Notes: generated by a model from the letters alone, not told the origin. Counted from the stretch's first letter, positions 4,492 through 30,732 are shown. The stretch: 34,758 nucleotides of DNA from a virus (IMGVR_UViG_3300027751_000967:1-34758), one strand, 5' to 3'. A program made the numbers and translations.

Positions 4492-5154
4492 TTATCCTTT
4501 ATTATAAGTCGACTTTGAATCTATCGCCACAAAGTATGTGACACCGGTGCCTTTGAATTCAGAGATACCCTTTGAACAAATGGTAACTTTGTAATCCATT
4601 GGCATGAGCTTTAAGTTATCAGTTTTAATGATTACCTTAAACTCATCGGCAGTTTCCCCGATTTCAACGCCAAAGTCATCTGCGTTATCGTTTGCACTGT
4701 CGATTGCTTTCAGATAACACTTGCCGCTTTCGCCAACAAATGCGATTTCTGAAAATTGTAGAACACCTGCTGCTTTCAGTACTGAAGAAAGATCACTTTC
4801 TGTTACCTCTACAACAACGTCTTCCGACGGTATATTTATATCTTTTTCAGGCGGTGTATGAATCATTGATATATCTGCGTAGATATATTTGGTTCGTCTC
4901 TTGCCTTCTGAGATAATAAAATACTTATCACCAAACTCTACGTCTGGATCTGTATATAAGCTTAGGATTGACAAGAATCTAGAAAGATCGTAGATACAAG
5001 CTTCTGCTGGTATCGTGTCTTGGATTTCTGCAATCGCAATAAGCGTCTTTTCGGGAGTAATCGTCTTAATAGTACTACCGGGCTTTAGCAAAACTGATTT
5101 GTTAATTGCGGTAAAACTTTTTAAGACACTCAAGGTTTCGTTAGAAAATTTCAT
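4492..5154 (-). CDS. g45: Sliding clamp gp45
   Basis: MKFSNETLSVLKSFTAINKS, IYDLSRFLSILSL; synteny with g44. Confidence 0.95.
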   Translation of the reverse strand: MKFSNETLSVLKSFTAINKSVLLKPGSTIKTITPEKTLIAIAEIQDTIPAEACIYDLSRFLSILSLYTDPDVEFGDKYFIISEGKRRTKYIYADISMIHTPPEKDINIPSEDVVVEVTESDLSSVLKAAGVLQFSEIAFVGESGKCYLKAIDSANDNADDFGVEIGETADEFKVIIKTDNLKLMPMDYKVTICSKGISEFKGTGVTYFVAIDSKSTYNKG

Positions 5155-5185: not shown

Positions 5186-5214
5186 ATTATAACACACTTT
5201 CATCTATTTGTCAA
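5186..5214 (-). promoter_or_regulatory. Sigma70-type promoter for g45; -35 lies in the last codons of the upstream gene
   Basis: TTGACA-17-TATAAT. Confidence 0.8.
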
Positions 5215-6067
5215 CTGTTTTGTAAGACTTTTTATTAGAAGTCGAGTCAGCAGTTGCGGTTACACCAAGCTCTGCTATAGAGCCCATTCCACCATTAAAT
5301 ACGTGGGTACCAACATGGTTGAGATGCATCCAAGGACACATCCAAACCTTTAGGCCAGCATCACGTGCTTTATGACAGAAGAAGTAATCTTCTGATAAGT
5401 AGCGCTTGGATTCGGGATCGATAACACAATCGAAAAATGCTGTAATTTCTCTTGTACCATCAAATTGTTCTGTTCGTGCGTGGTCAGGTAGGTATGCTAA
5501 CTCAGGGTAAGCTTCTTTGTACTTCATTAGTACATCCCTTGGTATTAACATAAATCCTGTACCAGCTTCTTGTACTTCAACTGGTTCTGATAATTTGAAT
5601 TGCTTCATTCCTTTAACGGGGTTGAACACAAAGTCAGATGTGAACCTAGATAATTCAAATGGATTATCATCTGCTTTACCCATTTGAGCTGCTTTAGCAA
5701 CCTTTTCCCAAGCAATTGTTTTCTTAGGATATGGGCCAGTTACGATCTGATACTTGTCTGGATCTTGTAGATGTACACCAAGTAAAGCAAGAGCATCTTT
5801 GGGATTAAACGCAATATCAGCGTCAATAAACAATAAGTGAGTACAGTCAGATCTTAAGAACTCATCTACAATGTAGTTACGTGCTCTTTGTACTAGACTC
5901 TCATTAAATAAGAAATAGTACTTTAACGGAATACCGTGTGTGGAGCATAACATACTCAAGTCATTAGTTGCTTTGGTATACATACCACTAGCTTGGCCAC
6001 CATACATTGGTGTACCAACGAAGATGCTATACTTTCTTAGCTCTTCGGTTTTAATTTCAATTTTCAT
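5204..6067 (-). CDS. GT-A fold (GT2-like) glycosyltransferase
   Basis: FVGTPMYGG, RARN, LLFIDAD (DxD), GTGFMLI, LSEDYFFC, C-terminal LNHVG. Confidence 0.75.
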   Translation of the reverse strand: MKIEIKTEELRKYSIFVGTPMYGGQASGMYTKATNDLSMLCSTHGIPLKYYFLFNESLVQRARNYIVDEFLRSDCTHLLFIDADIAFNPKDALALLGVHLQDPDKYQIVTGPYPKKTIAWEKVAKAAQMGKADDNPFELSRFTSDFVFNPVKGMKQFKLSEPVEVQEAGTGFMLIPRDVLMKYKEAYPELAYLPDHARTEQFDGTREITAFFDCVIDPESKRYLSEDYFFCHKARDAGLKVWMCPWMHLNHVGTHVFNGGMGSIAELGVTATADSTSNKKSYKTVDK

Positions 6068-6693
6068 TAGATTTGCTCCATATCATTTTCAGCTCTAGCG
6101 ATCGCTTGTAGTCTAAGCACATCTGCTAATACGTCCCAAGAACTATCATGTTGTTTAAATGCTCTTTCCCATAGTTTATCATCAGCGATCGGGCAGAAAC
6201 CGTTTTTTGTGTCAAAATTAAATTTGGCATCAATATAAGTCCGCATGTCACGAACCATATAATATTTTAGATAAGTATTAAGATGGTTGCCTCTTTTTTG
6301 GCTATCAAAAAGTCTTGTCAAGATTACAGGATCAAAAGCATTACCTCTTGTCCACCAGTGACCAATATTCTCATCAACAACTAGATTATGAAAGTTAGAT
6401 ACAAACTCTTTAACAGTCAAGTCTTGCTGTGTTGGTTTGACACGAGCACGTACTTCTTTATCTTGCTTAGACCAAAATTCTAAAACAGAATCTTCGATCT
6501 TATATCCATAATCTTTTACTTGCTCTTGAACATTCAATTTAAATCTACGAGTCTTACTGATATCTTTCAGACCATAAGGGTTTTGTGTAAACTCATCCCA
6601 ATCGAAAATCATAATTGAACAGTCAACGACTGCACACGTAGTTGGGTCAACACCCATTGTTTCAAAGTCAAGTACTAGGTTTTTCTTTTTCAT
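6067..6693 (-). CDS. dexA: DexA-like 3'-5' exonuclease (DEDDh)
   Basis: LDFETMG, WTRGNAFD, RDMRTYI, HDSSWD; resembles T4 DexA. Confidence 0.85.
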   Translation of the reverse strand: MKKKNLVLDFETMGVDPTTCAVVDCSIMIFDWDEFTQNPYGLKDISKTRRFKLNVQEQVKDYGYKIEDSVLEFWSKQDKEVRARVKPTQQDLTVKEFVSNFHNLVVDENIGHWWTRGNAFDPVILTRLFDSQKRGNHLNTYLKYYMVRDMRTYIDAKFNFDTKNGFCPIADDKLWERAFKQHDSSWDVLADVLRLQAIARAENDMEQI

Positions 6694-7934
6694 TATGTCA
6701 TAAACTCTGTAATATCAACTGTTGATGTGGTCTCACGTATTCTTTGAGACATATTGTCTTGGTACATGAATGAAGCATCTTCCATAGGAAGTTTGCGCTC
6801 GATCGCTGCTTTGACTTGAGTAGCCATATCTCTAGCAGTATTGAACGGAACATTTTGACAAATGTGATTGACGCTTTTCTCAGGATCAAGTAATTCATAA
6901 TCTTGTGGAAGACCCATGATGGTCATGGCTTCTCTATAGTTTATATATCTATCTTCTACAGGGTGAGTCAGAACGTGAGGCATATGTACAACGAATGCAC
7001 CAATATGTTTGACAGGAATAATTGTTCCTCGCCACATTACACCTTTACCTGACTTAAGCTTTTCGTATCGTCTTAAACACTTTGCAGCTTCTCTTTCAAG
7101 GCCTTGAGCAGCCATATATTCAGATAACTCTTTGTAGTTGCATTGTCCTTTATAATCACCAAGGATCATTTCACTTTCAACATTAAAAGAAGGCTTTGTG
7201 AAAGTTTCATCTTCTCTTAACTCTTTTGCAAACTCTGCGTGAGTCATTCCGCCTTTGATTTCTTCTAAGAAGTACTTATAGTAAGGATCATCAACAGATG
7301 GAATCTTAGAGTTAATTGTTTCTGTTTGGAAATTACTTTTATTCTCCATCAATAATTGAGCGATCGTTGGATGTTCTTTTTTGAAGTAATCAAATACAGG
7401 AACTTTATTCTTAAAGTAATCTCTTTTCCAAAAGAAGTAGAATGATCGTCTTCGTATCTGCGGAGTACCATGTAATAATGTCTTCGTAGTATAGATGGTC
7501 ATATTATAACCAGCTTCGTTGGCAGTTTTAAGAAGTTTCTTTCTCATAAATGCGCCAACATTGGTTGCCAAAGCAGGAGCATTCTCACCCCATAATACTT
7601 TAGGACCAATCTCGTTCAATACAAACTTAGTTGATTTTTCCATCCATTGGTTATTTGGATTGTCTTCACCGTAAGAACTGTGATAACTACTTAAGCCTGC
7701 ACAAGGACATACTGATGAAACAACATCAACTTTCTTGTAACGCTTAGGTGCATTATCTCCATCAATAATATGGTAAGGTACGTCGACACCTTGTTGTGCA
7801 TAATGATTTCTTAGATGTTTCTCATTACCTTCAAATCCGCTATAAGTCATCATATATTCTGGAGTGACTCCGTAAGCATCATCTGAAGCTAATACCTCAC
7901 CACCGATCAGTGGTATAATTGCTGCGTGTTTCAT
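6693..7934 (-). CDS. C5-cytosine DNA methyltransferase homolog with atypical SAM-binding motifs
   Basis: Motif IV CPCAGLS, VI GENAP, VIII PQIRRR, IX REAMTIMGLP present; motif I reads IIPLIGGE and motif X reads ICQNVP. Confidence 0.8.
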   Translation of the reverse strand: MKHAAIIPLIGGEVLASDDAYGVTPEYMMTYSGFEGNEKHLRNHYAQQGVDVPYHIIDGDNAPKRYKKVDVVSSVCPCAGLSSYHSSYGEDNPNNQWMEKSTKFVLNEIGPKVLWGENAPALATNVGAFMRKKLLKTANEAGYNMTIYTTKTLLHGTPQIRRRSFYFFWKRDYFKNKVPVFDYFKKEHPTIAQLLMENKSNFQTETINSKIPSVDDPYYKYFLEEIKGGMTHAEFAKELREDETFTKPSFNVESEMILGDYKGQCNYKELSEYMAAQGLEREAAKCLRRYEKLKSGKGVMWRGTIIPVKHIGAFVVHMPHVLTHPVEDRYINYREAMTIMGLPQDYELLDPEKSVNHICQNVPFNTARDMATQVKAAIERKLPMEDASFMYQDNMSQRIRETTSTVDITEFMT

Positions 7935-9055
7935 TGTACTATTGCCTCTAATTCTTGTTGTTGTGCTCTTTTATCGAGTGGGTGATTATCGTACAGACAT
8001 TCTTTTTGAGCTTTACCCAACCGTGTTTTTTCTTCGATAGTCATAGCTTCAACACTCGCAAGAGTATTACCAACATATGCTTCCCCGTATATTGAACCTT
8101 CTTTATCTGAACATACAAGTATAGACTCTACATCTGCTACTTGTTGAACACGAGATCTCCACCAACCTGAACCAGCATGATAATACTCTGGCATCATACA
8201 ACCCCAGTTTTCATTATAGATTCTACACATATCAGGTTCTTTAACACGGAAGGTTTGGATACCAGCAGTGAGTTTGGTTTCTCGTCTTGGGCCAAAATTC
8301 AATACGTCCCAAGTAGGTTTTTGTTTGTTGAACCATGGCATGGTTTTACTTTGAACGATAGATGAGAATACCCATTGTAATTTCTTTTCTTCGGGTGGAA
8401 GAATAATTGGCTCATCATCAAAGAAACTTAGAATACCTGGATCTTCTCCATAGTTATTCTCAGGCCTACGATTTAGGTTGTAAGGATTTGGATTGTAATT
8501 AACAATGTCACCTTTATAGTCAAGCTTAAAGGCGTTGTTGTCACCCCCGTCAAAAGAACAGAGAAGCAATGTATTTGTTTTTCTGTTTACAATTTCACAA
8601 CCTTCAATGAATGTATCAATATGATCACCAAGCTTTTCAAGTTTAGTATCACCTTTATAGAGGTCAGCCAAGTATTTGTTTGTTCCATACTCTAGGAACG
8701 GTTTACCTGTTTCTTTCCACTCTTTAAGATTCTCTTGGTATAGTTTAAACGATACAAATACTTCACGTACTTGCCAATCGTCGTTTCCGAGAATAGCGTC
8801 AGGCCTTGCTTTGAGTACATACAGTGCATCAAAAGCATGGTGACTAAAGGATTTTACAGATGATAGATACACGATTACTTTGTCGTAGGCAGTTATATTC
8901 TCACCAATACTCACAGTTCTTTGGTCGACCTCGTGTCCCATATCTTCAAGACAGCGAATCAACGAATAGTGTGAGTTTAGGATTTTGAGTTCTTTACCTA
9001 GAAAATAATCACGTGTACATTGCTCTTTATTAAAGCCAGTGATTAAGATTTTCAT
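7931..9055 (-). CDS. GT-B glycosyltransferase resembling T4 DNA beta-glucosyltransferase
   Basis: Colinear blocks match remembered T4 BGT: LEDMGHEVD, YDKVIVYLSS, VLNFGPRRE, RVQQVADVESILV. Confidence 0.6.
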   Translation of the reverse strand: MKILITGFNKEQCTRDYFLGKELKILNSHYSLIRCLEDMGHEVDQRTVSIGENITAYDKVIVYLSSVKSFSHHAFDALYVLKARPDAILGNDDWQVREVFVSFKLYQENLKEWKETGKPFLEYGTNKYLADLYKGDTKLEKLGDHIDTFIEGCEIVNRKTNTLLLCSFDGGDNNAFKLDYKGDIVNYNPNPYNLNRRPENNYGEDPGILSFFDDEPIILPPEEKKLQWVFSSIVQSKTMPWFNKQKPTWDVLNFGPRRETKLTAGIQTFRVKEPDMCRIYNENWGCMMPEYYHAGSGWWRSRVQQVADVESILVCSDKEGSIYGEAYVGNTLASVEAMTIEEKTRLGKAQKECLYDNHPLDKRAQQQELEAIVQ

Positions 9056-9073: not shown

Positions 9074-10159
9074 TCAAAAGAAGCTACTTAGAGAAGCTTC
9101 TGCATTATTATTATCTATTATAACACATTCTATAGTTTTGTCAACTACTTTTTCAATATTTTTTTGCCATGCCTTAAGAGAGTGTTTTTCTTTAGTCATT
9201 TCAGAGATTTCAAGTCTCTGTTCAAAAGTAGTTTTGTTTAGCGATCGTACGATATCGGCAAGGTCGTTACCTTTTACTGACGTTCGTACTTTCGTTATAT
9301 GTTTATTTATGACCGGTATCTGCTCGGATGCATGGGTATCAGTTGAGTTAGTTACTAGTACAGTTGGCAAACCGTGGGCTAATGCTTCAAGAGCAGTAAT
9401 ACCCCAAGTCTCTACAGGACAAGTTGAAATATAACATCCAGCTTGTGCCATATAAGCCATAGTGTCTTTATAAGACAAACCACGAATAACTTCATTTGGT
9501 TTTTCCCAAGCTAAGTTGTCTTCGTGATATTTAAGATGGTCACCGTACAGTAATTCAGCTACGTGAGAAGTCAGTACAACATTATGTAATCCTGAGCCGT
9601 TTAGTTTCTTAGGCATCCAAAATGGATTCTTTGTCTTATCAGTACGGCCTACAGTAACTGCATCGTAAGTACATTCAAGCACCTTCTCATCGCCCATACT
9701 AAAAGCAGAATCAATAAAATCTACGATCGGTAGTGGTTTACCTTCAACCCTTTGGCTAAGTTTATCCATACCAATATGTTGATGTCTAGATACAAATGCA
9801 ACTACTCCACCATTTGCTTGAAACTCATGCATCTGTTGCATGTGACCAATTTTAGAAATACCACCAGCAGCAGTATGACTAATCCACAATATAGGTGTAT
9901 TAGTTTTTGCTTGTAATCTAGTAGTAAGTGGTGCGTTATCATAATTAACAATAACAACATCTGGTTGGTAAGTATCAATAGCAGCAGTGATTTTATCAGT
10001 CACTCTACGCTTCTTTCGATCTTCATCTGTAAAATGTACAGGGATTACATCGTCAAAGTTTTGATAGATTAATTGAGCAAATCTCTCAATTCCACCGATA
10101 ACAACAGAGTCTGTAATCTCAATATTGTTTCTTGTAAAGTATGGTAGAAGTATTCTCAT
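9074..10159 (-). CDS. GT-B glycosyltransferase (GT4-like, retaining)
   Basis: N-terminal GGIERF, VGRTDKTKN, ETWGITALEALAHGLP (E-x7-E). Confidence 0.85.
   Translation of the reverse strand: MRILLPYFTRNNIEITDSVVIGGIERFAQLIYQNFDDVIPVHFTDEDRKKRRVTDKITAAIDTYQPDVVIVNYDNAPLTTRLQAKTNTPILWISHTAAGGISKIGHMQQMHEFQANGGVVAFVSRHQHIGMDKLSQRVEGKPLPIVDFIDSAFSMGDEKVLECTYDAVTVGRTDKTKNPFWMPKKLNGSGLHNVVLTSHVAELLYGDHLKYHEDNLAWEKPNEVIRGLSYKDTMAYMAQAGCYISTCPVETWGITALEALAHGLPTVLVTNSTDTHASEQIPVINKHITKVRTSVKGNDLADIVRSLNKTTFEQRLEISEMTKEKHSLKAWQKNIEKVVDKTIECVIIDNNNAEASLSSFF
9117..9144 (-). promoter_or_regulatory. Promoter embedded in the GT4 3' end, driving the BGT-like/MTase-like/dexA/GT-A genes
   Basis: TTGACA-16-TATAAT with the GTTGACAAA and TGTGTTATAAT flanks seen at the other promoters. 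Confidence 0.6.
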
Positions 10160-10210: not shown

Positions 10211-10681
10211 TTATTTATGAAGTTCTAACACCGTAGGTCCTTGTAGGAACTCTGTGTCGACTCCAGCTTCAACAAATAGATTAAGGGATTTAGAAAATGA
10301 AGCAACCCATTTTTCAGGAATGTTTCCATCAGTTGCCATAACAACTCTTTTAACACCAACTTGAATGATACCTCTTGCACAGTCGTTGCAGGTCGGTAGC
10401 CCCCAAACATAAATGGTAGAATCTTTTAAAGATGTACCACTGTATGTAGCGTTATAGATTGCATTCATTTCAGCGTGAATTACTGTTTCGTATTTCACTT
10501 CTTTATCTTCGTAACGTTCAGGAGTATCGGCTATTCCCTTAGGAAAGCCATTGTAACCTGTAGCTAATACTCTACGTTCGTCGTTTACAATTACTGCACC
10601 AATTTGTGTACTTGGATCTTTTGACCAAGTAGCTACTTCTCGGGCTAGTCTTGCAAATCTTGCATCCCATTTATCAGCCAT
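10211..10681 (-). CDS. cd: dCMP deaminase
   Basis: SKDPSTQIGAVIV, TGYNG, HAEMNAI, PTCNDC. Confidence 0.93.
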   Translation of the reverse strand: MADKWDARFARLAREVATWSKDPSTQIGAVIVNDERRVLATGYNGFPKGIADTPERYEDKEVKYETVIHAEMNAIYNATYSGTSLKDSTIYVWGLPTCNDCARGIIQVGVKRVVMATDGNIPEKWVASFSKSLNLFVEAGVDTEFLQGPTVLELHK

Positions 10682-11336
10682 TCATTAATTCCTCAATGAA
10701 ATTAAAGTGTCTTTCGTACACATGGAAGTTAGAAGCTGTCCAGATTAGATTACCAGGCTCTACACCGAGAGCAAAGGCAAGATCATTTTGAACATACTTA
10801 GCCCAAGCATAATCATTATTATAGCCGAATACAGCATCGTTGGATCTCATCAAATAGTGAGATTCAAGTTTACCATCACGAATATAAAATGTATTTGCAT
10901 ATGTACACATAAAGTCGTTCATACCATCACGTGACATGTCAACGTGCATCGATGGACGATTGTAGATCATAGTAGCTCTACGGCTGTTTGGATTATTCTT
11001 TAACTCACGTAGAACATGCTGATATTGGCTACCATTCTCTTTTGAGTAGATACACCAACCATAATTTGAATTAATCATACCTTCAGTAGAAGCAATTGAT
11101 TTCCAAATCTGTGGTGTCTCACCAGGTATATCATTAACGTTTAACGATTGTGATTTGTACCACTCAAGTTCACGTTCAATATACTTGTAAGCTGGTTTAC
11201 GAATAACATAATCTTGATCAGCGATAAATGTAGCGCCAATCATTTCAATAGTCTTGGCGCCAGTTCTGTCGATAACAAAATCTTTAGCTAGATATTTGAA
11301 AGATAACTCTTTTCTTATATTAGCGACAGTCAACAT
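10674..11336 (-). CDS. g42: dCMP hydroxymethylase (T4 gp42-like, thymidylate synthase fold)
   Basis: RELEWYKS, DIPGETPQIW, INSNYGW, SRR, DFMCT (catalytic Cys), MRSNDAVFGYNND (Asp at the dCMP-specificity position), HVYERHF. Confidence 0.9.
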   Translation of the reverse strand: MLTVANIRKELSFKYLAKDFVIDRTGAKTIEMIGATFIADQDYVIRKPAYKYIERELEWYKSQSLNVNDIPGETPQIWKSIASTEGMINSNYGWCIYSKENGSQYQHVLRELKNNPNSRRATMIYNRPSMHVDMSRDGMNDFMCTYANTFYIRDGKLESHYLMRSNDAVFGYNNDYAWAKYVQNDLAFALGVEPGNLIWTASNFHVYERHFNFIEELMNG

Positions 11337-12233: not shown

Positions 12234-12635
12234 CTATAGATCTTTAAATTTACCGTGATTTCCTTCATGAGAAGGCGGATACCAGGACTCTGGTTTAATT
12301 AGGTCAGGTACTCCGAGTGGATTCGGTCTTGATGGTTTTTCTCCAACCTCTTTGTTCATATTTGCTAATAACACTTCGTCCCAAGCTTTATAGGGATTAA
12401 CACCGAAGGCGTCAAGTGTACCGATAGCAACAACACACAGATCAATCAAGCCATCTACAATTTCTTCTGCGTCGTTCTCAGCTACTGCTTTACGTGTTTC
12501 TTCCAACTCTTCGTTTAGAAACTCAACACGAAACTTTAGAAACTCTAATAGTTTCTCTGGATTAGCTTCAACCCATTGTCTTGTAAGATATTTACCTTGC
12601 ATTAAGTGTATATCTTCTACCCAATTTTTACTCAT
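12234..12635 (-). CDS. MazG-like NTP pyrophosphohydrolase (candidate dCTPase)
   Basis: EELEE...EIVDGLIDL acidic motif, ANMNK, DLIKPESW. Confidence 0.75.
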   Translation of the reverse strand: MSKNWVEDIHLMQGKYLTRQWVEANPEKLLEFLKFRVEFLNEELEETRKAVAENDAEEIVDGLIDLCVVAIGTLDAFGVNPYKAWDEVLLANMNKEVGEKPSRPNPLGVPDLIKPESWYPPSHEGNHGKFKDL

Positions 12636-18561: not shown

Positions 18562-19176
18562 TTAGTCCTCGCTTGTACTTAAGTCAAGCTTGTTATTTTT
18601 GGCTGTTTCAATCATCTGCTCTTCTCTAAGTTTATTAACGTTGTCAACCCACTGCATAGTAGCTAACATTTTGTTGCGCTGTTTTGTAATTTTTGCTTTC
18701 TTTGTAAGAGCACGATCGTACTTCATTCTTGAAACATGGTCTTTATATACTACACCGTTGAGATGGTCTAACTCATGCATAAAGCATCGAGCACCATAAC
18801 CTTCGAGTAGTCCACTTTGTTTTTCGCCATTCTCATCTAACCATTCTGCCTGAACAGTTTTTGGTCGTTTAACGTGGAGGAATACATCTGGGAAACTCAA
18901 GCAACCTTCAACTTCAAGTTCAGTATCGTTGTCGAACTCTAAAACTTTAGGATTGATTACCATAATAGCAGTATCTTTTGATTCTCCCATAACAAAGCAT
19001 CTCATATCTAAACCAACTTGACAAGCAGATAAGCCGATACCTTTGCGCTTCACCATCATATCAACCATTTGTGATTTTAGATCTGCAGCATCTTCAAATA
19101 TTTGCTTGACCTCTTCAAAATCAAAATCCTTTAGCTCTTTGTTAAGAATAGGATCGGGGTAGTATACTAACTTCAT
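18562..19176 (-). CDS. def: Peptide deformylase
   Basis: GIGLSACQVG, EGCLS, HELDHLNG. Confidence 0.95.
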   Translation of the reverse strand: MKLVYYPDPILNKELKDFDFEEVKQIFEDAADLKSQMVDMMVKRKGIGLSACQVGLDMRCFVMGESKDTAIMVINPKVLEFDNDTELEVEGCLSFPDVFLHVKRPKTVQAEWLDENGEKQSGLLEGYGARCFMHELDHLNGVVYKDHVSRMKYDRALTKKAKITKQRNKMLATMQWVDNVNKLREEQMIETAKNNKLDLSTSED

Positions 19177-19598
19177 AATTTACCTTCTTCTCTCATTTGT
19201 GCACGAATAGATGTTGCAGATATCTTATGGATATCTTCGCCAAGGTCATGTTCTGTAAATGTGTAACCTACTCCACGACCAAAGCTAATGTCAACAATAT
19301 TCGGCACCTCTATAATTAAGTACTCACGGCCATTTTCATAACCATGTTCTCTTAGTCCATTTTCAATACCTTCAATAGTTTGTATCATACCAAACGGATT
19401 ATCGTCCTGTTTGGCTGTACGCCCTGCTCCAGCATCACCTTCATATTTAAAAACGTCTCGTACCATTATAACAACTTGTCCCGTGATTGTCAAGGCTTTT
19501 TTAAATAATTGTGTGTGGCCATCATGCCAAGGCTGCCATCTGCCTAGCATCTGAACCGTTGGCTTTTTATAATCAAAGAATTCTTCTGGATTAATCAT
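19173..19598 (-). CDS. HIGH-family (cytidyltransferase-like) nucleotidyltransferase
   Basis: GRWQPWHDGH, DNPF, ISATSIR. Confidence 0.8.
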   Translation of the reverse strand: MINPEEFFDYKKPTVQMLGRWQPWHDGHTQLFKKALTITGQVVIMVRDVFKYEGDAGAGRTAKQDDNPFGMIQTIEGIENGLREHGYENGREYLIIEVPNIVDISFGRGVGYTFTEHDLGEDIHKISATSIRAQMREEGKL

Positions 19599-19812
19599 TT
19601 CCCTTTACTCCAAATTTAATATGATTATACCATAGCCTTTCGTGGCCGTAGTATAATACAAACTTAATAACTATATCAGCAAGAAATACTGCACCGACTG
19701 CCTTAGTTGGTAATCCAAAGTATAAGGCTATTAAGGCTGTTGTAATACTTGCTATAAATCTCCATGTCACTGCTTTCGCTAAGTGTCTCGCTTTTGTTAC
19801 TCTCTCACTCAT
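19591..19812 (-). CDS. DUF2061-like small membrane protein
   Basis: KAVTWR...LYYGHERLW with two hydrophobic helices. Confidence 0.8.
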   Translation of the reverse strand: MSERVTKARHLAKAVTWRFIASITTALIALYFGLPTKAVGAVFLADIVIKFVLYYGHERLWYNHIKFGVKGND

Positions 19813-20243
19813 TAATCTTCCGTGTCTAACTTAAAAGTAGCTCTAATAATTGCAGCCGTAGTAACATGCACATCAGGTCTAAATGTATGTACAATGTGAT
19901 CTACTGAAGTTGGCTTCTCAAAGATCTTATTAGTATCTTCAAAACGACCTTCTTTAATTGTATCCATCCAAACTGAATAGTCTGGTGCAAAATCAACACG
20001 AGCTTTCTCAAACGGACAAACAAAGTCTGTAATAGCAAACTTACCAGCTCGAACTACACCTTCCGATAGGAACTTCATTCTCAATGCTTGTCTCATACGA
20101 CCTTCATCACTAAAATCCCAGTCGTCATATTGTTCTCTTACCTGGTCAGCGTTTATCCAAACACCTCCAAGCTCTTTTGCCAATGGTTCAGCAAGATAAC
20201 TCTTACCAGATCCTGGCAGACCAAAAATCAAAATCTTCTTCAT
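19812..20243 (-). CDS. Adenylylsulfate-kinase (CysC)-like P-loop kinase
   Basis: GLPGSGKS, NADQVR, DFSDEGR, DFVCP, FEKP. Confidence 0.75.
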   Translation of the reverse strand: MKKILIFGLPGSGKSYLAEPLAKELGGVWINADQVREQYDDWDFSDEGRMRQALRMKFLSEGVVRAGKFAITDFVCPFEKARVDFAPDYSVWMDTIKEGRFEDTNKIFEKPTSVDHIVHTFRPDVHVTTAAIIRATFKLDTED

Positions 20244-23832: not shown

Positions 23833-24531
23833 ATGTTTAATCCCAAATCTTTCAACTTTGAAGTCGACACTGCAGACCTCTCAATCAATGAAGTAACTAA
23901 TCTTCATAACATATTTTTCGTCTCTAAAGATTACGACTGGTGGTACGAGGTTTTACCTGATGATGTCGTAGTTGACATTGGCGCTAGTGTAGGAATGTTC
24001 TCAGCTAAAGCTTTAGACGCTGGTGCTAAGAAAGTTTATATGATCGAACCAAGTAAGAAGCTTTTAAAAACTGCGGTCAAGAATGTGTCCGATTATATTA
24101 TAGGTAACAACGAATTACCAAGAGTCGTTCCAATCAACGCAGCAGTCGGCCGTACTGATATTGATCTATCCAACGTATATGGTAATAATGAAGTAAAGCT
24201 AATGAGCTTATTAGAATTCTGTGTAGATTTTGATGTCGAACAAATTGACTTCTTAAAAATTAACGCAGCTGGTGCAGAATACAATATCTTACACAGAGAT
24301 ATGTTTGATTTTCTAGGAACTAAGGTTCGCCATATAGCAGTACGTTGCCATTTAGATGCTCAGTATGGTAGTATAGATAAATTCAGAGAGTGGCGAGATA
24401 CTGTGTTAAATCCAATGATTGCACTCGGTAGAGTTTATGTTCAAAACGATACGTATATTGAAAAGATTCAAAGCGATCAGTTCGCCGAACTAATGCCAAA
24501 AAGCTTTATGTTGTATATTAAGAATTGGTAG
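23833..24531 (+). CDS. FkbM-family SAM-dependent methyltransferase
   Basis: VVVDIGASVG, MIEP, INAAVG, IDFLKINAAGAEY (canonical KiDvEGaE altered). Confidence 0.75.
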   Translation: MFNPKSFNFEVDTADLSINEVTNLHNIFFVSKDYDWWYEVLPDDVVVDIGASVGMFSAKALDAGAKKVYMIEPSKKLLKTAVKNVSDYIIGNNELPRVVPINAAVGRTDIDLSNVYGNNEVKLMSLLEFCVDFDVEQIDFLKINAAGAEYNILHRDMFDFLGTKVRHIAVRCHLDAQYGSIDKFREWRDTVLNPMIALGRVYVQNDTYIEKIQSDQFAELMPKSFMLYIKNW

Positions 24532-30057: not shown

Positions 30058-30732
30058 ATGAATGTAAAAATGATCTCATACTCTCAAGCTCCAGATGCTA
30101 ACGCATCAGAGAGTGCACTCGATTTAGTAGCTTATTGTGCTAGAGTATCAAACCCATCTAATCAAAATAATACAGAGACGAATGAGAAGCTCGTCAAGTA
30201 TCTAATGAAACACAAGCATTGGTCTCCATTAGAGATGGTGTCTCTCTGCTTAGAAGTTGAAACAACTCGTGATATCGCTAGACAAATCTTACGACATCGC
30301 TCATTCTCGTTCCAAGAGTTTAGCCAACGATATGCAGACCCTACTGCTGATCTAAACTTTGAGATCAGAGAAGCAAGACTACAAGACACAAAGAATCGTC
30401 AGAACAGTATTCCAATTGATATTACAGACGATAAACAACGAAGAATAGCAGAAGATTGGCGAATGAAGCAAATGGAATACATCCGTCAGTCTCAAAAGCT
30501 ATACACTTGGGCGATCGAGAATGGTATCGCTAAGGAGCAAGCACGTGCAGTACTTCCAGAAGGAAACACCGTATCTCGTATGTATATTAATGGTACCCTT
30601 CGTTCTTGGGTTCATTTTATTGAACTTAGGAGTGGCAACGGTACACAAGCTGAGCACATGGATATTGCGAAGGCAGTAGCTCAATGTATATCAGAAGTCT
30701 TTCCAATGGCAGGTGATTTTGTATCAGAGTGA
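30058..30732 (+). CDS. thyX: Flavin-dependent thymidylate synthase
   Basis: HWSPLE, RQILRHRSFSFQEFSQRY, KEQARAVLP, TQAEH. Confidence 0.96.
   Translation: MNVKMISYSQAPDANASESALDLVAYCARVSNPSNQNNTETNEKLVKYLMKHKHWSPLEMVSLCLEVETTRDIARQILRHRSFSFQEFSQRYADPTADLNFEIREARLQDTKNRQNSIPIDITDDKQRRIAEDWRMKQMEYIRQSQKLYTWAIENGIAKEQARAVLPEGNTVSRMYINGTLRSWVHFIELRSGNGTQAEHMDIAKAVAQCISEVFPMAGDFVSE

Follow-up and report, generated by a model that had tools for sequence, protein, structure and literature searches.

A phage family of C5-methyltransferase-fold proteins with a conserved, rebuilt cofactor pocket as possible editors of 5-hydroxymethylcytosine

A 413-aa protein encoded at 6693..7934 (−) of a viral sequence of 34,758 nucleotides (IMGVR_UViG_3300027751_000967, analysed at full length and hereafter called the window) was assigned, by ORF calling, its PF00145 match and an AlphaFold model, to the C5-methyltransferase (C5-MTase) fold, with a rebuilt cofactor pocket. 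Judged by its sequence, the protein is C5-MTase-like up to the covalent adduct, lacks three features by which such enzymes bind S-adenosylmethionine (SAM), and is not a CmoX. We give a slightly better than even chance to the reading that it represents a widespread phage family of natural, SAM-independent and replication-coupled editors of 5-hydroxymethylcytosine (hmC), either dehydroxymethylases or hmC-substituting enzymes. More specifically, and held tentatively at clearly less than even confidence, it may be a SAM-free, clamp-riding editor of the phage's own hmC that would most likely erase hmC left unglycosylated.

The ORF overlaps both of its neighbours, with its start codon at the TGA of the gene upstream (ATGA) and with its TAA at the ATG of the exonuclease gene downstream. 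The PF00145 match (E 7.8e-18) covers only residues 62–374 of the 413. The AlphaFold model (pLDDT 93.4) adopts the C5-MTase fold, and the comparison with M.HhaI that the preliminary description had called for gave Z 25.8 and an rmsd of 3.3 over 301 aligned residues. The motifs were located by alignment of homologs (all on the minus strand). Motif IV reads C76-P-C78-A-G-L-S82 (7689..7709), with the catalytic Cys kept and the following Gln replaced by Ala; motif VI is E117-N118 (7581..7586), motif VIII Q159-x-R161-x-R163 (7446..7460), and the Asp of motif III is retained as D58 (7761..7763). I7-P-L-I-G-G12 (7899..7916) stands in place of the FxGxGG of motif I. The motif II region, T30-Y-S-G-F-E-G-N-E38 (7821..7847), was placed by alignment and secondary-structure register and has Ser/Thr instead of the ribose-binding Glu, while motif X, aligned to CmoX, reads C359-Q360-N361-V362 (6849..6860). 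Both the intact motifs (P77-C78, E117-N118, Q159-I-R161-R-R163) and the altered ones (I7PLIGG12, Y27MMTYSGF34, C359QNV362) were found in the sequence as first described.

Conservation was assessed in 134 full-length proteins (340–480 aa) taken from the window protein and the 150 matches listed. Among these diverse homologs, C78 is present in 133/134 and E117, R161 and R163 in 134/134 each, which upholds the early claim of intact catalytic machinery. The Phe of motif I occurs in 0/134 and its first Gly in 1/134, and all 120 of 120 close homologs of the window protein carry PLIGG. The motif II slot is acidic (E/D) in 1/134 and Ser/Thr in 127/134, in a register inferred from strand position in the model, since hhalign is unreliable there and no residue-level superposition backs it; F34, N37 and D/E38 are family-specific residues of this region. 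In motif X, Gly is found in 5/134, and the slot of M.HhaI N304 holds Asn in 0/134, Gln in 131/134 and Arg or Lys in 2/134, so the Arg typical of CmoX is missing as well. By hhalign, Q360 aligns with CmoX R350, and the residue after the catalytic Cys is Ala, Ser or Gly in 132/134 and Gln in 0/134. The adenine side is retained, with an aromatic residue (Y/F/W) at position 31 in 125/134 and D/E at 58 in 107/134. In canonical C5-MTases the Asp of motif III contacts the adenine N6. PMC12783734 equates M.HhaI N304 with CmoX R350, states that it touches the transferred group, and gives the role of CmoX D69, which parallels D58 here.

Against two relatives of 83% identity, synonymous codon differences outnumbered non-synonymous ones (131 vs 70 and 109 vs 71). 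Near-invariant catalytic residues together with conserved replacement residues indicate a pocket rebuilt under selection and not decayed; as read from the alignments, the SAM pocket is reshaped in a conserved manner that is neither chance nor decay. The remodelling proposed from the single protein thus extends to a large phage family, in which the canonical contacts are replaced alike across the 134-member set. Retention of the adenine-side contacts (Y31, D58) and of the GG turn suggests that a nucleotide ligand is still bound, which favours substitution or alkylation.

The family is large and viral, with 2426 proteins and, at E ≤ 1e-30, 378 clusters at 50% identity. Fifteen matches were obtained in GTDB, of which 14 were mappable, and all 14 lie in phage gene context. 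The databases label the family as an ordinary methylase, and the ESM Atlas likewise gives ordinary-methylase names only. Neither a description of the family nor a natural enzyme dedicated to SAM-free hmC reactions was found in a literature search that covered few subscription papers. Tandem paralogs, 29–45% identical, were seen in seven loci; both members have intact motifs in L030/L118, L085/L128, L120, L126, L127 and L131, which suggests different sequence contexts or substrates for the two copies.

The window, a fragment of 35 kb with 19% completeness, comes from an uncultured marine T4-like phage and also encodes a polymerase, a clamp and its loader, gp46/47, UvsW, a topoisomerase and ThyX (30058..30732 (+), profile match); ThyX supplies dTMP, which would free the ThyA homolog for cytosine modification. 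The gene of interest lies in a tight run of genes for a MazG-like pyrophosphatase, a gp42-type synthase, a dCMP deaminase, two GT-B glycosyltransferases (GTs), the C5-MTase-like protein, an exonuclease, a GT-A-like protein and the clamp, all on the minus strand where coordinates are given here. The pyrophosphohydrolase (12234..12635, profile match) is a candidate dCTPase. The putative dCMP hydroxymethylase (10674..11336), 51.6% identical to T4 gp42, has the D143/D169/D177 signature, in the stretch NDFMCT...RSNDAVFGYNND, and so combines the acidic residue 143, Asp169 and Asp177 of the residue rules given in PMC13326640. Between these two, 11587..11934 matches nucleotide-modification-associated domain 1 (PF07659) weakly and below the cut-off (E 0.025). 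The deaminase (10211..10681) was assigned by profile match, and the GT-B protein at 9074..10159, assigned by profile match and tail scan, ends in a clamp-type tail, SLSSFF. The other GT-B gene (7931..9055), whose stop overlaps the start of the C5-MTase-like gene, encodes a protein with T4 beta- and alpha-glucosyltransferase as its closest folds; against T4 BGT it gave Z 17.9 and an rmsd of 3.5 over 292 aligned residues, so that it is BGT-like by fold, not by sequence. The clamp gene (4492..5154), located before gp44/gp62, encodes what we take to be a gp45-type sliding clamp. The GT-A-like gene (5204-6067 (−), 287 aa, phrog_1574) has no clamp tail and lies just before the clamp in 73/84 loci, which makes it steadier than the GT-B genes. 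Elsewhere in the window, small cytidylyltransferase-like and APS-kinase-like genes and an opposite-strand FkbM-type methyltransferase gene were noted (19173-20243 (−) and 23833-24531 (+)), as was a peptide deformylase gene (18562-19176 (−)), a common auxiliary gene in marine phages.

Across the family, a dCMP-type thymidylate synthase (TS) was in view in 90/137 loci, in 64/66 of those with at least 6 kb of upstream sequence and in 46/47 of those with at least 9 kb. These loci are redundant, and clustering them at 90% identity gave 55 clusters, 44/55 of which carry the dCMP-type TS. Of the 11 clusters without it, nine end within 4.5 kb upstream, L133 breaks off just downstream, in the stretch that holds the TS in its relatives, and phage G has its TS 13 kb away. 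D143/D169/D177 is complete in 87/90 TS from family loci, and Asp169 is kept in 89/89 readable ones, the window TS included; a 5-hydroxycytosine pathway (RB69-type 5-hydroxy-dCMP synthase, D169N) was dropped on this ground. PF00303 was matched in 18/25 whole records, each with a D177 copy; the seven records without a match are 22–39% complete, with a TS visible in the locus of one. A D177-type TS is present in 5/5 complete genomes, which represent three or more unrelated groups of phages, and homologs in phages that lack gene 42, against which the preliminary description had set its proposal, were accordingly not encountered among these five. The proposed confinement to phages with gene 42 therefore largely stood, for 46/47 loci with at least 9 kb upstream and for the complete genomes; in the clade L132, L242 and L243, all of them fragments, no TS is in view. 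A gp56-like dCTPase is encoded near the C5-MTase-like gene in L120 and in L242, the latter also having a dTDP-sugar epimerase. The link is one-way: the window TS matches 993 phage records, the C5-MTase-like protein only 6, and neither T4 nor S-PM2 has a family member in its genome. DHFR was found in 2/5 complete genomes, beside a canonical ThyA in both, and is absent from S-TIM5, a weak hint that the S-TIM5 TS does not oxidise folate.

Translational coupling to the BGT-like gene, an early argument for a shared function, is real in the window (ATGA overlap), but it is no conserved partnership. A BGT-fold gene was found in only 26/84 loci, and AGT-like, other GT-B or inositol-synthase cassettes stand in its place at others; a dedicated partnership was dropped for this reason. 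In L026, L034, L036, L039 and L048, genes for inositol-1-phosphate synthase and for a 5-hmdU-kinase-helical-domain protein replace the upstream GTs. The pocket remains constant while the GT partners change from locus to locus.

The protein ends in VDITEFMT (6696..6719 (−)), a tail of sliding-clamp-binding type recognised by tail scan and by a weak complex prediction. Such tails occur in 41/65 distinct family tails vs 51/487 background tails, the latter mostly from polymerases and GTs. For the tail and the window clamp, its predicted docking partner, the predicted complex scored 0.45, with the best control at 0.00. This mark was reached by 116/157 solved and 2/215 mismatched pairs, scores up to 0.60 comprising only 18 solved pairs and both mismatches; runs agreed in at least 47% of contacts, with a partner pLDDT of at least 41. 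A similar clamp-tail complex is already known. The prediction lends weak support to docking and, together with the tail type, suggests action on the phage's own nascent DNA.

Members were identified in three cultured phages, all among the five complete genomes and each with a D177-type TS and DNA GT homologs in its genome; they are annotated as DNA methylases or left without annotation. In Pseudoalteromonas phage XG4 (PP712099.1:5363-6580; 30% identity, IPLIGG, Gln at the N304 slot) the gene sits between GTs and a gp56 dCTPase homolog (40% to T4 gp56, E 9e-48) located ~440 bp downstream. With gp56-like dCTPases near the gene in XG4, L120 and L242, plain C should be scarce. S-TIM5 gp080 (YP_007006143.1; 29% identity, IPLVGG, Gln at the N304 slot) recurs in TIM5-like cyanophages and is the only PF00145 match in its genome, which also encodes ThyX, an AGT homolog and a TS (D177/C143) that is annotated as ThyA. 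In this TS, gp076 (L001:6766-7602), annotated as thymidylate synthase, Asp takes the N177 position and residue 143 is Cys; with these residues, and in a genome that also carries ThyX and the AGT homolog, it probably modifies dCMP. With Cys and not Asp at 143 it may be a dCMP methylase, whose product would not be erasable by the chemistry proposed here. The cytosines of S-TIM5 that follow purines are reportedly all 'methylated', other cytosines not; passages on methylation in papers that cite S-TIM5 do not state the pattern. Phage G gp301 (YP_009015604.1) is a distant member (22% identity, IFGG, Gln at the N304 slot, different motif II) and the best viral fold match (TM 0.74; hhalign E 2e-30). 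Two AGTs and a TS with D143/D169/D177 are found in its vicinity; the TS homolog of phage G with this signature, the second in the genome (L140:1468-2511, near 233.5 kb), is beside two alpha-glucosyltransferase homologs. By these genes glycosylated hmC is probable in phage G and could account for its anomalous gel mobility; modified DNA is reported in the phage G preprint, in passages that do not give its chemistry.

Genome composition gave a mixed picture. Palindromic hexamers in which C follows pyrimidines only showed stronger depletion in the window (p 0.037) and in G001 (p 0.006), uncorrected for 22 tests; the same depletion was absent in S-TIM5 (p 0.35) and six other carriers, so that 2/9 carriers and neither of the two controls fell below 0.05. 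At neutral codon sites, purine-C vs pyrimidine-C was 0.31 vs 0.19 in S-TIM5 and 0.26 vs 0.21 in T4, the contexts thus resembling those of T4. Separately, G015 (L193-L201) avoids A/T-only palindromes (TTATAA 0.03, ATTAAT 0.23 and AATATT 0.37 of expected), as though restriction sites that lack cytosine were where it is still vulnerable, and in G002 (L212-L216) GATC is essentially missing over 100 kb (0.00 of expected).

Genes for an alternative cofactor were searched for in the five complete genomes. CmoA (TIGR00740) was found in 0/5, with the control matched, and host CmoA could substitute for a phage-encoded one; SpeD was found in 2/5, and PF12851 (TET/JBP) matched 0/5, in a search in which no control matched either. 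A Cx-SAM cofactor of CmoX type is disfavoured by the lack of Arg at the R350 slot and by the CmoA result, and dcSAM was dropped because SpeD is in only 2/5 genomes. Neither in these searches nor in the gene maps does any cofactor- or co-substrate-synthesis gene travel with the family.

Under the erasure reading, the gp42-type synthase and the dCTPase would, by their sequence signatures, place hmC in new DNA, and the neighbouring, interchangeable GTs would sugar-coat the hmC within reach. Bare hmC would then be flipped out and held by E117, R161 and R163 while C78 attacks C6, as is expected from the family. In the rebuilt SAM site, where Q360 would adjoin the substituent at C5, the adduct could shed formaldehyde to give cytosine, as in the SAM-free in vitro reaction. 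The DNA would then hold sugar-hmC and plain C but only a little bare hmC, which modification-dependent restriction prefers as its target. Where C is replaced by hmC, a methylase would be without substrate, yet the C6 adduct could still form. PMC8829811 cites in vitro reactions of C5-MTases in the absence of SAM, namely thiol coupling to hmC and removal of 5-substituents. Erasure is favoured as a reaction that does without a co-substrate, in keeping with a family that no co-substrate gene accompanies, and because it suits a pocket that stays constant beside changing GTs; since a nucleotide-level synthase alone cannot give context specificity, it could also explain the pattern reported for S-TIM5. 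On the other hand, making hmC only to remove it is a wasteful route that opens sites to type II enzymes again, the adenine contacts Y31 and D58 and the GG turn are retained, and the site-avoidance signal is inconsistent, with two of nine carriers positive. The possible dCMP methylase of S-TIM5, the fragmentary clade without a TS in view, and the many gp42 phages, T4 among them, that manage without the family also weigh against it. The same genomic evidence would serve an enzyme that substitutes, in which the C6 adduct expels the hmC hydroxyl and the exocyclic methylene is captured by a pocket-held co-substrate (a thiol, an amine, or hydride from an adenine nucleotide) to yield a new base or 5mC. 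P8, L9, S/T30, F34, N37, D/E38, Q360 and N361 are conserved in a way that would fit a site moulded to a ligand, the adenine contacts are kept, and the SAM-free thiol coupling to hmC (PMC8829811) is a precedent in vitro. We nevertheless regard substitution as unlikely, as no co-substrate gene accompanies the family and the reaction leaves no unprotected cytosines, so that the reported S-TIM5 pattern stays unexplained.

A writer acting on plain C, which would use SAM or an analogue in the rebuilt site to methylate or alkylate cytosines, for example after purines, and so mop up those escaping hmC substitution, has a modest chance of being correct. The reported S-TIM5 methylation after purines fits it directly, gp080 being the only PF00145 match there, and Y31, D58, G11-G12 and S82 are retained. 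CmoX demonstrates that a change at the N304 slot alters the transferred group (PMC12783734), and the Gln after the Cys and the N304-slot Asn, which our alignment maps to A79 and Q360, are the two residues engineered for bigger donors (PMC8829811). This is countered by the loss of the Phe, the first Gly and the ribose Glu in 134, 133 and 133 of the 134 homologs, whereas CmoX keeps F25 and E47, and by the dCTPase adjoining the gene in XG4. A plain methylase would moreover have no reason to be confined to hmC phages, an analogue synthase does not co-occur (CmoA, SpeD), and the neutral codon sites of S-TIM5 show no deamination-type loss of purine-C, which is weak evidence. An installer, hydroxymethylating leftover C in DNA with formaldehyde or a folate carrier as donor and a GT to trap the product, would run the same chemistry in reverse (the title of a reference in PMC8829811) and would provide the hmC that the S-TIM5 AGT homolog needs; being redundant with the gp42-type synthase and dCTPase of the same operon, and with removal likely to be favoured at cellular formaldehyde levels, it is very improbable. 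Least credible is a non-catalytic reader or a decaying methylase: the canonical SAM motifs are lost, but the near-invariant C78, E117, R161 and R163, the excess of synonymous differences and the spread over 378 clusters contradict it.

Compared with canonical C5-MTases (M.HhaI, M.HaeIII, Dcm; PF00145), the protein shares the fold, motifs IV, VI and VIII, the motif III Asp and the motif order, and differs in FxGxGG to IPLIGG, ribose Glu to Ser/Thr, PCQ to PCA and GN[AS]V to CQNV, as well as in its clamp-type tail and its tie to hmC synthesis. CmoX of Synechococcus phage S-B43 (PDB 8YF3; PMC12783734) is also a phage C5-MTase fold repurposed through the N304 slot and has also lost the Gln after the catalytic Cys (PCS). 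It keeps F25/E47/F48/D69, however, and has Arg350, where the 413-aa protein has Gln360 and neither the Phe nor the Glu; CmoX acts on plain C, and the present carriers have no CmoA in any of the five complete genomes. The SAM-free reactions cited in PMC8829811 share the covalent Cys-C6 chemistry proposed here and are laboratory side reactions of ordinary or engineered enzymes. With the T4 glucosyl-hmC system (gp42, gp56, cd, alpha/beta-GT) the window shares the gp42 ortholog, the deaminase, a BGT-fold GT and the location of the cluster near gene 43-45; T4, unlike the window, has no C5-MTase-like family member. In phage clusters of C5-MT, TET (5mYOX) and GT genes (10.1101/2023.12.21.572611) a C5-MTase homolog likewise stands beside DNA glycosyltransferases, but there the MTase makes 5mC for TET, whereas here hmC would come from a thymidylate-synthase homolog.

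Enzymatic removal or substitution of the hmC hydroxymethyl group in DNA is known as an in vitro side reaction, and a dedicated natural enzyme would settle whether it also occurs in cells. The cultured phages S-TIM5, XG4 and phage G, newly identified here as carriers, offer test systems. If either hmC-editing reading is correct, which we judge a little likelier than its opposite, the chemistry would be categorically new and could supply a single-enzyme tool for sequencing or labelling hmC; as a writer, too, the protein would differ from other methylases in having a non-canonical cofactor site. For phage anti-restriction chemistry an hmC editor would mean an additional step: what methyltransferases do as a side reaction in the test tube would have been turned into a replication-coupled 'glycosylate-or-erase' step, and the 'methylation' of S-TIM5 would be sugar-hmC carved out by erasure.
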